Assembly: GCA_945835885.1 (NCBI GenBank)
Contig: CAMAJR010000002.1
Span: 1-58,796 of the forward strand
Length of the DNA stretch: 58,796 bases
Direction: 5' to 3'
From: an uncultured Alphaproteobacteria bacterium
GTDB lineage: Bacteria > Pseudomonadota > Alphaproteobacteria > RF32 > CAG-239
The notes below the pieces were generated by a model, which was not told where the DNA came from, made no database searches, and saw nothing but the letters and a program-made list of their open reading frames with translations. This document shows, piece after piece, positions 50,942-57,665 of this stretch. Within the stretch, counting starts at the first letter, position 1. Each line of letters starts with the position of its first letter. A program made the position numbers and the translations under genes.

Positions 50942-52360
50942 ATGGCAGAAAAGAAAAATATCGGATATGTGTCGGCTATCAACGGCGGAGTGGCGGAAGT
51001 TGTGTTTGAAGAAAAGCTTCCGGAAGTCAATAATGCTTTAAAAATCGGTAATTTAACGGCAGAAGTTCAGGGTTATATCGATACTAAGACAGTGCGCGCA
51101 CTGGTTATGGGGCCAACGCAGGGGTTGGCACGGCACAGCGCAGTCATAGACAGCGGACACCCGATTGAAGTTCCGGTCGGAAATACGGTTTTGGGGCGAA
51201 TGTTTAATGTGTTCGGACAGCCGATAGATAAAGGCGAAGCGCTTAAAAACGCGCCTACACGGTCTATACACGCTAAACCGTTGCCGCTCCACGAACGCAA
51301 GGCATCGTCCGAGATATTTATTTCCGGTATTAAAGCGATAGATTTGCTGGCACCGATGGAACGCGGCGGTAAAGCAGGTCTTTTCGGCGGAGCAGGTGTC
51401 GGCAAAACGGTGTTGATTACCGAACTGATTAACAATATGGTCGGACGTTATGAGGGCGCAAGTATCTTTTGCGGTGTCGGCGAGCGTTCGCGTGAGGGCG
51501 AGCAGCTATATCGGGAAATGAAAGACGCCGGCGTATTGGATAAAACCGTGATGGTGTTCGGACAAATGAATGAGGCACCGGGCGTGCGTTTCAGAGTGCC
51601 GCTGACGGGGTTGACAATGGCGGAATATTTTCGCGACAAAGAAAAAAAAGATGTGTTGTTGCTTGTCGATAATATTTTCCGCTTTGTGCAAGCCGGCTCC
51701 GAAGTTTCGGTGTTGCTCGGACAAATTCCGTCGCGTGTAGGGTATCAACCGTCGCTCGGCACGGATATTGCCGATATTGAAGAACGGATTGCTTCAACCG
51801 ATAATGCGGCGATTACGTCGATTCAGGCAGTGTATGTGCCGGCAGATGATTTTACCGACCCGTCGGCCGTGCATACGTTTGCACACCTTTCGTCAAGCAT
51901 TGTGCTTTCACGCGCACGGGCGGCGCAGGGCTTGTATCCGGCGGTGGACCCGCTTTCTTCGGCATCAAATATGTTGGTGCCGCAAATTGTCGGCGAAAGA
52001 CACTATCGGGTTGCGGTTGCGGTGCGCAGATGTTTGGCGGAATACGAAGAACTTAAAGATATTATCGCAATGCTCGGTTTTGATGAGTTGCCGGAACGCG
52101 ACCAGCAAACAGTGCTTACGGCACGCAAGTTGGAACGCTTTTTGACGCAACCGTTTTATACCACATTCCAATTTACGGGTATGGAAGGGCGTTCGGTCGA
52201 TTTGGAAAAAACAATTGAAGGATGCGAGCGCATTTTATCCGGCGAGTTTAATTATCTGTCTGAAAACGATTTCTTTATGGTCGGCGATATTGATGAAGTT
52301 ATCGAAAAAACAAAAGACAAAAAGGCCGCATACGAGTCAGCTTTGAAAGAGAGTGCCTAA
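50942..52360 (+). CDS. atpD: N-type ATPase beta subunit
   Basis: 472 aa. Walker [14 protein letters not shown]-like region (FDELPERD). It is the first gene of an atpDCQRBEFAG-ordered operon. Confidence 0.95.
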
Positions 52361-52363
52361 GCT

Positions 52364-52768
52364 ATGAAACTGACCGTGTTCACGCCGCTCGGGACGGCAC
52401 TCAACAGCAAAATCAAAAAGGTAACAATCGAAACCTTGAACGGTTATTATACGTTGTTGCCGAAACACGTTGATTTTGCAGCGGCTATGCGGGCTAATAT
52501 TGTGGTATATACCGATGACAACGACGTTGAAAAATATGTGGCGTGCCATCACGGAATTGTGGTTAAAAAGGGCGAACTCGTGACCATAACGGTGCAAGAT
52601 GCCGTTACGGGAGAAACACTTGATGAATTAAGCGAAGTTATTAACCGCGATTTTAAGCAGAATGACGAAAAACGCAAAGAATTAAACAGCGCAATGGCTC
52701 GGCTCGAACTCGGGATAATGCGTGGATTCGGCCGATTAAACAAAGGGGACAACGATGGTGGAATTTGA
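52364..52768 (+). CDS. atpC: N-type ATPase epsilon subunit
   Basis: 134 aa with beta-sandwich N-terminus (V.TP.G.........V......G...(I/L)LP.H). Position directly after beta. Confidence 0.85.
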   Translation: MKLTVFTPLGTALNSKIKKVTIETLNGYYTLLPKHVDFAAAMRANIVVYTDDNDVEKYVACHHGIVVKKGELVTITVQDAVTGETLDELSEVINRDFKQNDEKRKELNSAMARLELGIMRGFGRLNKGDNDGGI

Positions 52769-53093
52769 AGAAGTTCAGGATTCTCAGGTGCGCGATGAGC
52801 TTATTCGCAAAGCAAAATTGATAAAACGTCGTCCTTATCGTCGGTGGCATACGCACTTTGGTATGATTGCTGCACTCGGCGGGGTTATCATTGCGCCGAT
52901 TTTGCTCGGACTTTGGCTTGGCGGCTATCTTGACGAAATATTACCGCAACGCTTTTCGTGGCGGTTGTCGTTGTTGTTTGTCGGCTTTGTGTGGGGAGCA
53001 TTTAATGCGTATATGTGGGTGAGTATCGAAAATCAAAAAAATGAACAACTTGAAGCAAAATCGAACGTTATCAAACAAGGAGAAGAAAAATGA
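52755..53093 (+). CDS. atpQ: AtpQ (ATPase_gene1 / AtpI-like small membrane protein of N-ATPase operons)
   Basis: 112 aa, two TM helices (GGVIIAPILLGLWLGGYLD; LLFVGFVWGAFNAYMWV). Position between atpC and atpR. AAGGGGA SD. Overlaps the atpC end. Confidence 0.75.
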   Translation: MVEFEEVQDSQVRDELIRKAKLIKRRPYRRWHTHFGMIAALGGVIIAPILLGLWLGGYLDEILPQRFSWRLSLLFVGFVWGAFNAYMWVSIENQKNEQLEAKSNVIKQGEEK

Positions 53094-55277: not shown

Positions 55278-56776
55278 TGAAAGCAGAACGGACTTTTGAG
55301 GCGGTGGCTCAAACTATTGATGATACAAAAATGCAACTCAAAAAAGAAGAAGTAAGCATTGTGCAGTCAATTTCTGCCGGAACGGCGATTGTCAGCGGTT
55401 TGGAAAATGTCGAAATGGACGAATTGTTACAGTTTGAGCATAATGTGCAAGGTATGGTGCAAACGCTGAATCGCAATTCGGTCGGGGTGGTGTTTTTGGA
55501 TAATCCCGACAAAATTAAAGCAGGCGACCGCGTGATGCGCACCGGGCGTGTGCTTGATGTGCCGGTCAGTGAGAATTTGTTTGGGCGCGTGATTAACCCG
55601 CTCGGCGAGGTGCTTGACGGTAAAGGGGCTTATGCTTATAACGAGCGGCGGCCGGTAGAAGTTGAAGCCGTGCCTATTATGGACCGTGCACCGGTGGACA
55701 CGCCGTTGCAAACGGGAATTAAGGCCGTTGATGCGTTTACGCCGATTGGACGCGGACAACGTGAATTGATTTTGGGTGACCGGCAAACCGGAAAAACCGC
55801 AATCGCGCTTGATACCATCATCAATCAAAAAGGCACCGATGTTGTGTGTATTTATTGTGCTGTCGGCCAGCGTAATTCGGCTGTTGCCAATGTCATTGAT
55901 GCTTTGAAAAAATACGGTGTTGCCGAACAAACTATTGTGGTGTCGGCATCGGCTGACGATGAAGCCGGTATGCAATTTGTTGCGCCGTATGCGGCAACTT
56001 CTATCGGTGAATATTTTATGGAACGCGGGCGTGATGTGCTTGTGGTGTATGATGATTTAACAAATCACGCACGGGCATATCGTCAGATGTCACTGCTTCT
56101 CAGACGTCCGCCGGGGCGAGAGGCCTTTCCGGGTGATATTTTTTATATTCACTCGCGGTTGTTGGAACGTGCAACAAAATTAAGTGCCGAAAAAGGTGGC
56201 GGCTCGTTGACCGCATTACCGATTGTATGCACCGAAGCCGGCAATATTTCGGCTTATATTCCGACCAACATTATTTCAATTACCGACGGACAGATTTATC
56301 TTTCCGCACCGATGTTTCAAAAAGGTTTAATGCCGGCTATTGATACCGGTAAGTCGGTATCTCGTGTCGGCGGAGATGCCCAGTTGCCGGCTTATAAATC
56401 GGTAGTCGGACCGCTGAAATTGTTTTATGCACAATTTGAAGAGTTGGAATCGTTCACAAAGTTCGGAACGCAGCTTGATAAGGAAACTCAACAGCGAATC
56501 GTGCGCGGACAGGCAGTGCGGCAAATTTTGCAACAAAGACAATTCAATTTGTTGTCAGCAACCGAACAAATTGCCGTTTTTGCGGCTACAAATGCAGGAT
56601 TGTTTGACGGTATGGACACAATGCAAATAATTGATGCGCAAAAAACAGTGCTTAAAATCTTTCATACACAATTCGGCGAATTGGAAAAGGCCGTGCTTGA
56701 CCGGCGTAAACTGACCGATGAGGAATTATCACAAATGACAAAGGCGTTTGCTGCCGTGTTAAAGAGCGGAGAATGA
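55277..56776 (+). CDS. atpA: N-type ATPase alpha subunit
   Basis: 499 aa with Walker A GDRQTGKT, VYDDL and ITDGQI(Y/F)L motifs. Confidence 0.95.
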   Translation: MKAERTFEAVAQTIDDTKMQLKKEEVSIVQSISAGTAIVSGLENVEMDELLQFEHNVQGMVQTLNRNSVGVVFLDNPDKIKAGDRVMRTGRVLDVPVSENLFGRVINPLGEVLDGKGAYAYNERRPVEVEAVPIMDRAPVDTPLQTGIKAVDAFTPIGRGQRELILGDRQTGKTAIALDTIINQKGTDVVCIYCAVGQRNSAVANVIDALKKYGVAEQTIVVSASADDEAGMQFVAPYAATSIGEYFMERGRDVLVVYDDLTNHARAYRQMSLLLRRPPGREAFPGDIFYIHSRLLERATKLSAEKGGGSLTALPIVCTEAGNISAYIPTNIISITDGQIYLSAPMFQKGLMPAIDTGKSVSRVGGDAQLPAYKSVVGPLKLFYAQFEELESFTKFGTQLDKETQQRIVRGQAVRQILQQRQFNLLSATEQIAVFAATNAGLFDGMDTMQIIDAQKTVLKIFHTQFGELEKAVLDRRKLTDEELSQMTKAFAAVLKSGE

Positions 56777-56777
56777 T

Positions 56778-57665
56778 ATGCCGATTGAAGCTTTGCAACG
56801 CAAAATCAAAACGACGAAGGACTTGCGTGAGATTGTCAACAATATGAAGACATTGTCGTCGGTCAGTATTTTGCAGTATGAACAGGCAAATTCCGTGCTT
56901 GATAAATATCAGCGTAATCTGCATGACGCGTTTCATGCGTTAGCGCTTCATAACGGCATACCGAACTTATCGGTGAAGCCGACAGTGCATCAGCGCTCTT
57001 TGTTCATATTGATCGGTTCGGATAATGGTATGGTCGGGCGGTTCAATCGCGAGCTTATCGAAGTAGTGAAAAATTATATGAAAGAACACCGTATTTTGCT
57101 CGCGGATACGATGTTTATAACTGTCGGCAAACGTTTGTCACAGTTGGCAGAACAGGCCGGATTTAAGATTTTGGCCGGATTTGCGACTTCTAACTCGGTT
57201 AAAACGGTAACATCTTTGGCCGGAAAGGCCATTGTGCGTATGGAATCCGCTCTGCGCCAAAAACACATTTCCGATGTTTTTGTATGCTTCCATCAGCGCG
57301 CTAACGCAACGGCGGTGGAAACGCAAATTAAGAGGATGTTGCCGATTGATGTCGCGGCCTTGCAAAAATTGCGTTACAAAAAGTGGGAAACCAACAATTT
57401 TCCGATGTTGGCAACGCCGCCGGATAAAATGTTTGCGGCATTACTCAGCGAAATGATGATGATTACGCTTTCTAAGCAAATAAATGCATCATTGGCGGCA
57501 GAACATTGGACCAGAATGACAAATATGCAAAATGCCGAAAAAAATATTGATGAAAATCTCGAAGAAATGAATTTGGAATATCAGCAACAACGCCAAGAAG
57601 AAATTACCGGCGAACTGATAGATGTGATTTCAGGCGCCAATGCCCTAAAAAAAGACGAAAACTAA
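56778..57665 (+). CDS. atpG: N-type ATPase gamma subunit
   Basis: 295 aa. N-terminal helix (L.RKIKTTKDL.EIV..MK.(L/V)S) and C-terminal helix (RQ..IT.EL.(D/E)(V/I)(I/V)SGA.AL) are typical of gamma. Confidence 0.9.
   Translation: MPIEALQRKIKTTKDLREIVNNMKTLSSVSILQYEQANSVLDKYQRNLHDAFHALALHNGIPNLSVKPTVHQRSLFILIGSDNGMVGRFNRELIEVVKNYMKEHRILLADTMFITVGKRLSQLAEQAGFKILAGFATSNSVKTVTSLAGKAIVRMESALRQKHISDVFVCFHQRANATAVETQIKRMLPIDVAALQKLRYKKWETNNFPMLATPPDKMFAALLSEMMMITLSKQINASLAAEHWTRMTNMQNAEKNIDENLEEMNLEYQQQRQEEITGELIDVISGANALKKDEN

Follow-up and report, generated by a model that had tools for sequence, protein, structure and literature searches.

The locus considered here raises two questions: what kind of rotary ATPase it encodes, and what such an enzyme would do in a gut alphaproteobacterium with a small genome. 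It lies on contig CAMAJR010000002.1 of an uncultured Alphaproteobacteria bacterium (assembly GCA_945835885.1; GTDB lineage Pseudomonadota, Alphaproteobacteria, RF32, CAG-239; source genome of 1.51 Mb, 96% complete), within a stretch of 58,796 nucleotides that we call the window. Nine intact open reading frames (ORFs) of the + strand span positions 50942-57665, in the order beta, epsilon, AtpQ, AtpR, a, c, long b, alpha and gamma. They form an operon of the N-type (alternate F1Fo) rotary ATPase, a class defined in 2010 (Dibrova, Galperin and Mulkidjanian, PMC2881411), and its product is most likely an ATP-driven Na+ export pump that works beside an H+ F-type enzyme of the same cell.

Organization of the operon and family assignment

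A preliminary description, made from the letters of the window, had proposed the order atpD-C-Q-R-B-E-F-A-G with no delta gene. Both the ORF map and the Pfam and NCBIfam families bear this out, and they revealed no OSCP/delta ORF inside the operon. The genes, all on the + strand, are:

50942..52360, +: atpD(N), N-type beta, the catalytic subunit (472 aa; PF00006; Walker A motif GGAGVGKT)
52364..52768, +: atpC(N), epsilon (134 aa; TIGR03166 alt_F1F0_F1_eps, PF02823)
52755..53093, +: atpQ, small membrane protein, ATPase_gene1 (112 aa; PF09527, TIGR02230)
53090..53458, +: atpR, N-ATPase-specific membrane protein with intramembrane R60 and K90 (122 aa; PF12966)
53448..54188, +: atpB(N), a subunit (246 aa from the likely ATG at 53448; TIGR03306 altF1_A, PF00119)
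54209..54478, +: atpE(N), c subunit with a two-carboxylate Na+-type site (89 aa; aligned to 3ZK1 and 1YCE)
54498..55277, +: atpF(N), long b with a delta C-terminal-like domain at about residues 175-249 (259 aa; TIGR03321 alt_F1F0_F0_B)
55277..56776, +: atpA(N), alpha (499 aa; TIGR03324 alt_F1F0_F1_al, PF00006, PF00306)
56778..57665, +: atpG(N), gamma (295 aa; TIGR03323 alt_F1F0_F1_gam)

The measured junctions also match that description, which spoke of overlaps, of gaps of 1-3 nt and of gaps of about 20 nt. The gaps are of 3 nt (D/C), 20 nt (B/E), 19 nt (E/F) and 1 nt (A/G), and the overlaps of 14 nt (C/Q), 4 nt (Q/R) and 1 nt (F/A), to which one of 11 nt (R/B) is added if atpB starts at 53448. 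The ORF of this last gene is open from 53298 (53298-54188), and the ATG at 53448 is its likely start because the profile match begins about 25 residues after it. The G+C content of the operon (45.5%) is near that of the window (43.5%) and of the genome (42.4%), so that there is no compositional sign of recent transfer.

Pfam and NCBIfam profiles place every one of the nine ORFs in the expected subunit family. The NCBIfam set for the alternate F1F0 ATPase (TIGR03305/03166/03306/03322/03321/03324/03323) supplied the best model for seven subunits, and TIGR02230 and TIGR03165 did so for AtpQ and AtpR. The beta subunit scored 721 bits with TIGR03305 (alt_F1F0_F1_bet; cut-off 752) against 623 with the ordinary atpD model, and gamma 214.5 bits with TIGR03323 (cut-off 282) against 113.9 with the ordinary gamma model, while the F-type gamma of the same genome reached just 84 bits with TIGR03323. 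For alpha the score was 700 bits (TIGR03324, cut-off 750.5), for the a subunit 214.8 (TIGR03306, cut-off 302; 139 bits with PF00119), for b 145.5 (TIGR03321, cut-off 225) and for c 104 with the alternate model (cut-off 131). Epsilon exceeded its cut-off (TIGR03166, 113.5 bits, cut-off 100.1), as did AtpQ with both of its models (PF09527, 32.6 bits, cut-off 26.6; TIGR02230, 52.8 bits, cut-off 46.7). AtpR passed with PF12966 (40 bits, cut-off 26) and stayed below with TIGR03165 (33.4 bits, cut-off 55.5). Both of the small membrane proteins, which had been named from the letters and the ORF list, are therefore recognized by Pfam at its own thresholds.

Phylogeny of the beta subunit

We scanned the GTDB species genomes with the window beta protein, which gave 80 loci, and compared all nine window proteins with them. 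Wherever the context was available, loci with a beta identity of at least 57% always had the N order beta-epsilon-Q-(R)-a-c-b-alpha-gamma, and those with 56% or less always had the F order a-c-b-alpha-gamma-beta. In the maximum-likelihood tree of beta (81 rows) the N clade was recovered with a support of 99 and the F clade with 100, on a branch of 0.71; one row of N order with a long branch sits just outside the F clade. The window beta groups inside the N clade, in a subclade of five members (support 99) formed by metagenome-assembled genomes (MAGs) of Alphaproteobacteria from the gut or rumen of roe deer, goat, yak and horse, and the other beta of the same genome, on contig C65, falls in the F clade. 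Clustering by tree concerns the beta subunit, and the assignment of the remaining subunits is backed by the ranking of their profile scores. With beta placed away from the F-types and both small ORFs recognized by their profiles, the identification as N-ATPase stands, and the sequences support all the testable hallmarks published for the class (Dibrova et al., 2010, PMC2881411).

The ion-binding site and the coupling residues

Alignment of the window c subunit (HMMER) with two Na+-binding rings, those of F. nucleatum (3ZK1) and I. tartaricus (1YCE), showed that E30, E63, T64, T65 and Y68 match E32, E65, S66, T67 and Y70. The two-carboxylate Na+ ligand set is complete, and specificity for Na+ is predicted from it. 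Among the N-type loci the commonest signature at these positions was EESTY (23 loci), followed by EETTY (11) and a few incomplete ones; EETTY was found in all the inspected members of the genus to which the window belongs. The Gly motif of helix 1 reads SxGxAxG, with Ala/Ser replacing Gly as in large rings. The c subunit of the F-type enzyme of this genome has Leu at the site of E30 and Ile at that of T65 (motif ESIxxY); since two of the Na+ ligands are missing it is predicted to be of the H+ type. One relative, a MAG from horse faeces, carries an N-type c with the signature EETGY (locus L048, 11328-11591), that is, with Gly at the T65 ligand position, and may have switched to H+ coupling.

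In the a subunit, the essential stator Arg is R184; it lies within GLRLFGN, and solved a subunits show RLFGN at the aligned position. The intramembrane Arg that had been noticed in AtpR is R60, conserved in 27 of 28 homologues. When a profile of N-type b (25 sequences) was compared with one of F-type delta (19 sequences) by hhalign, b residues 175-249 aligned with delta columns 106-178 (probability 97.3%, E 2.5e-11). This similarity points to homology between the end of b and the C-terminal domain of delta, and it reproduces the relationship published in PMC2881411.

A second rotary ATPase and the bioenergetic context

It had been remarked that an N-type enzyme as the only rotary ATPase would be unusual, and that N-ATPases usually accompany a normal F-ATPase. 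We found that this genome follows the usual arrangement. PF00006 detected two alpha/beta pairs plus one protein of 420 aa, probably Rho, and the ATP-synt_C and ATP-synt_A profiles each found a second copy on contig C6. Reading of the contigs gave a canonical F-type enzyme in two parts:

C6:38293-40760, +: F-type Fo genes atpI-B-E-F'-F (atpI-a-c-b'-b)
C65:311-5280, -: F-type F1 genes atpH-A-G-D-C (delta-alpha-gamma-beta-epsilon)

The split layout is typical of Alphaproteobacteria. No enzyme of the V/A type was found in the genome, and the F-type genes on C6 and C65 rule out the N-type as its only rotary ATPase.

The Na+ pumps and the terminal oxidases were searched for with profiles that matched in control genomes. 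There was no match in this genome for NQR/RNF (PF03116) or the beta subunit of OAD-type decarboxylases (PF03977), nor for heme-copper oxidases (PF00115, COX1) or cytochrome bd (PF01654). The lack of a detected terminal oxidase supports the idea, already voiced in the preliminary description, of an anaerobic organism, and the data as a whole point to a fermentative anaerobe with two rotary ATPases. Of the primary Na+ pumps considered here (NQR/RNF, OAD and the N-ATPase itself), the cell would have the N-ATPase alone.

Elsewhere in this genome, C27:14127-18636 (-) holds a row of three polytopic membrane ORFs (559, 469 and 472 aa). Those of 469 and 472 aa are very degenerate homologues of NuoM/NuoN (131 bits with TIGR01972, cut-off 264; 148 bits with TIGR01770, cut-off 333), and that of 559 aa matched no family. 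They are followed by BirA-like and RNase J-like genes, as happens after nuoN in Alphaproteobacteria. Given that no terminal oxidase was found in the genome, this may be a remnant or a repurposed antiporter-like module.

Distribution and evolution in the genus

The alternate-gamma model separates N-type gamma (177-226 bits) from F-type gamma (99 bits or less), and we used it to follow the operon across genomes. Within the GTDB family of the window, 121 genomes representing 23 genera were covered; an N-type gamma was present in all 10 genomes of the genus of the window and in no other genus. In a sample of 201 genomes from the order, 29 of the 30 belonging to this genus had it and none of the remaining 171. 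The only one of the 30 with no match (G161, 99% complete, 1.6 Mb) suggests a secondary loss of the operon.

All nine N genes are present and intact in nine other inspected species of the genus, as they are in the window. Their divergence is very uneven among subunits: identities to the window proteins were 79-85% for beta, 69-73% for alpha, 50-56% for gamma, about 40% for b, 78-94% for c and 44-54% for AtpR (loci L096-L104). The F-type proteins of the same nine genomes were closer to their counterparts in the window genome (beta 89-91%, alpha 84-87%, gamma 64-66%). Concatenated pairwise distances of the N and F enzymes were correlated with r = 0.995 and a slope of 1.64, over pairs that are not independent, and the backbone topologies of the two agree. 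Relative to the F-type core of these genomes, the N-type core has a rate of evolution higher by a factor of about 1.6. For a pair of species from the genus, the ratio of nonsynonymous to synonymous changes (dN/dS) was 0.03-0.19 for all nine N genes, with 0.16 for AtpQ and 0.19 for AtpR, and 0.025-0.07 for the F genes of the same pair.

The simplest reading is one acquisition before the radiation of the genus, followed by vertical inheritance under purifying selection. N-ATPases had been described beforehand as laterally mobile; this holds here at the deep level only, and within the genus the operon is inherited vertically. Rather than a recently mobile island, we are dealing with a stable and strongly constrained trait of one gut genus. 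In the window the operon is flanked by truA, a NUDIX gene and, downstream, small ORFs. These neighbours are not kept beside it in loci L010, L011, L012 and L048 or in those of the same genus, and for this reason no insertion site can be shown.

Proposed function and alternative explanations

The enzyme would consist of an N1 head (alpha3beta3, gamma and epsilon) and a membrane part made of the a subunit, the c-ring and the b subunit, the C-terminus of which would replace the missing delta; AtpQ and AtpR would likely act as assembly or regulatory factors for the two-glutamate c-ring. It would most likely run in the direction of hydrolysis. Hydrolysis of ATP in beta would turn gamma/epsilon and the c-ring, each c would bind one Na+ through E63, T64, T65, Y68 and the E30 of the neighbouring helix, and the ion would be let out outside via the half-channel of the a subunit, past R184. 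Working in this way, the N-ATPase would prevent Na+ from building up in the cytoplasm and would generate a sodium-motive force. The ligand set and the genomic context together suggest pumping of Na+ (or H+) at the expense of ATP and not ATP synthesis, and the lack of matches to NQR/RNF, OAD and the oxidases favours ATP-driven Na+ export over Na+-driven synthesis of ATP.

Several points weigh against this interpretation. Seven of the nine NCBIfam models (all but TIGR03166 for epsilon and TIGR02230 for AtpQ) gave scores under the strict cut-offs, on account of which we regard the operon as a divergent branch of the N-type family. At position 64 the window c has Thr and not the canonical Ser, and the second basic site of AtpR, an Arg in 22 of 28 homologues and a Lys in 5 of 28, is Lys in the window protein. 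Specificity for Na+ is a prediction from sequence, and a prediction of this kind failed with the N-type c-ring of B. pseudomallei, which is H+-selective despite its two Glu (PMC5376962). A preprint (10.64898/2026.10.01.756066) cites ATP synthesis in vitro by the N-ATPases of Aphanothece and Methanosarcina, so that hydrolysis can be called no more than the likely direction of operation. Besides, the survey of Na+ transport covered primary pumps (NQR/RNF and OAD).

The case of B. pseudomallei leads to the possibility that the N-type enzyme pumps protons and not sodium and helps to control pH in acidic parts of the gut, the role put forward for the c17 enzyme of that species. Its c-ring is the sole N-type ring tested biochemically, about half of the N-ATPases are predicted to be of the H+ type by ProAD (PMC11738941), the helix 1 motif of the window c is that of large rings, and relatives were sampled from abomasum and rumen. 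Nevertheless, we consider proton pumping unlikely. The B. pseudomallei c has Thr62, Met63 and Tyr66, with Met at the position equivalent to T65 (PMC5376962), and therefore lacks one ligand that the window c has, its set being complete like that of 3ZK1; moreover, the H+-type F-ATPase already present in the genome could pump protons. Another alternative would be a reversible "standby" ATP synthase with a high ion-per-ATP ratio, able to use a small gradient of Na+ or H+ at low membrane potential. According to the preprint mentioned above, N-ATPases in general would have some 20 c subunits and perhaps two stalks and would work near 50 mV; it also refers to N-ATPases that made ATP in vesicles with coupling to Na+. 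The short delta-like segment of the window b would also fit. On the other hand, this stoichiometry and number of stalks are predictions, none of the NQR, RNF, OAD or terminal oxidase systems that could build the gradient was detected in the genome, and deletion of the N-ATPase of M. acetivorans left ATP synthesis unaffected (PMC2881411), which makes a standby synthase quite improbable here.

That the locus could be a rearranged or decaying duplicate of an F-type operon, with no distinct function, might be thought from the alternate models that fall under their curated cut-offs and from the fact that the ordinary atpD and atpA models also pass. We find this extremely improbable. The window beta belongs to the N clade, far from the F-type beta of its own genome (identity of about 52-54%, as estimated from relatives in which the two were compared), both AtpR and AtpQ are encoded, and the nine genes are intact in the 10 inspected genomes of the genus with the low dN/dS values given above. 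Intactness, dN/dS, phylogeny and the AtpR and AtpQ profiles taken together rule out decay of a duplicate.

Related genomes in which only the N-type operon was found

Not all of the closest relatives follow the pattern of the window genome. The genomes behind loci L010 and L048 have both enzymes. In two others, G214 (JAFPYW01, goat abomasum, behind L011; 1.037 Mb in 73 contigs) and G215 (JAGDDD01, yak rumen, behind L012; about 0.9 Mb), searches with the gamma model and with the F-type a, gamma and beta proteins of the window genome gave only N-type matches. The full set of 73 contigs of G214 was searched (tblastn) with all the F-type and N-type subunits; this gave only the N operon, on contig C16, and one weak Rho-like match. 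Neither G214 nor G215 yielded an F-type subunit (beta, gamma, a, alpha, delta or c) or a V-type enzyme. For G215 about 510 kb, roughly half of it, were examined, and completeness was estimated indirectly.

In G214 there are 39 tRNAs with 37 anticodons; the window genome, at 96% completeness, has 37 tRNAs and 34 anticodons. The examined half of G215 contains good homologues of 156 ORFs of the window genome, and for 85% of these ORFs G214 has one as well. The absence of rpoB and of most of tuf and fusA from G214 shows that the assembly is incomplete, and the flanks of the F-type Fo locus are scattered there over different contigs; no site of insertion or deletion of this locus could be shown in G214. 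If each of the two sister MAGs is about 85% complete, it is unlikely that both would lack the two separate F-type loci by chance.

We propose, tentatively and as a possibility to be taken seriously, that in anaerobic Alphaproteobacteria of gut and rumen the laterally acquired Na+-type N-ATPase goes beyond an accessory role: it may be the only primary Na+ pump of the genus, and it may have fully replaced the ancestral H+ F-type synthase in the sister lineage of about 1 Mb represented by G214 and G215. If so, these related genomes may run on the N-type enzyme alone, as sole rotary ATPase and main membrane energiser of a reduced fermentative cell, and this would touch on the view, long held, that the main ATPase of a cell cannot be replaced by an N-ATPase. 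In the literature searched, genomes with only an N-type enzyme are known from a single genus, T78 of the Chloroflexota, in which 18 of 20 genomes have an H+ N-ATPase and no other rotary ATPase (ProAD, PMC11738941). T78 resembles G214 and G215 in having only the N-type, and differs from them in its phylum and in being H+-type, whereas the two alphaproteobacterial MAGs carry Na+-type c signatures. It also differs from the window genome, which has both enzymes.

Relation to known systems

The operon is an ordinary, if divergent, member of an already described family. With the N-ATPases in general it shares the gene order, AtpQ and AtpR, the lack of delta, the long b with a delta-like end, the separate clustering, the two-Glu c with an E(S/T)TxxY motif and the coexistence with an H+ F-type ATPase. 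It differs in the ETTxxY motif in place of ESTxxY, in the Lys that replaces the second Arg of AtpR and in the low scores of most models. Its host also departs from the marine or halotolerant organisms of the family, being an anaerobic gut alphaproteobacterium with a 1.5 Mb genome. Because the scores lie under the strict NCBI cut-offs, an automatic pipeline would probably name most subunits of this clade as ordinary F0F1 subunits. In the literature searched we found nothing linking N-ATPases to gut or rumen Alphaproteobacteria. The ProAD survey of GTDB (2025) counted 1,807 N-type enzymes, and the combination seen in the window genome, an H+ F-type with an N-type of the Na+ signature, is the most frequent one there, in 164 genera (PMC11738941).

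Three characterized systems offer a closer comparison. The Na+-ATPase of Aphanothece halophytica (Halothece) is cited in PMC5376962 and in preprint 10.64898/2026.10.01.756066 as an N-type enzyme experimentally coupled to Na+. Its operon is of the same type: in locus L040, from Halothece, the genes follow the N order, beta is 61% identical and the c subunit has the full Na+ signature EESTY. It comes from another phylum and habitat, however, identities range from 25 to 61% by subunit, and the coupling of the window enzyme to Na+ is a prediction. The c17 enzyme of B. pseudomallei (PMC5376962) is likewise encoded beside an F-type operon, with two carboxylates and Ala-substituted Gly motifs in helix 1; what sets it apart is the Met described above and its selectivity for H+, in contrast to the complete ligand set of the window c. 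Finally, the c11 ring of F. nucleatum (3ZK1) has a two-carboxylate Na+ site whose residues align one by one with those of the window c (with Ser in place of T64), in an ordinary F-type ATP synthase that has delta and has no AtpQ or AtpR.

Surroundings of the operon

A scan of 50000-58796 for promoter and terminator consensus sequences gave site counts equal to the shuffled expectation and no clear terminator. The same scan, with its counts at the shuffled level, yielded one weak promoter candidate upstream of atpD (50848-50877). Downstream, and convergent with the operon, an ORF of 143 aa at 58098-58529 (-) is not kept beside the operon in other species of the genus; its product has a lipoprotein-like signal and a repeat region rich in Cys, Pro and Ala.

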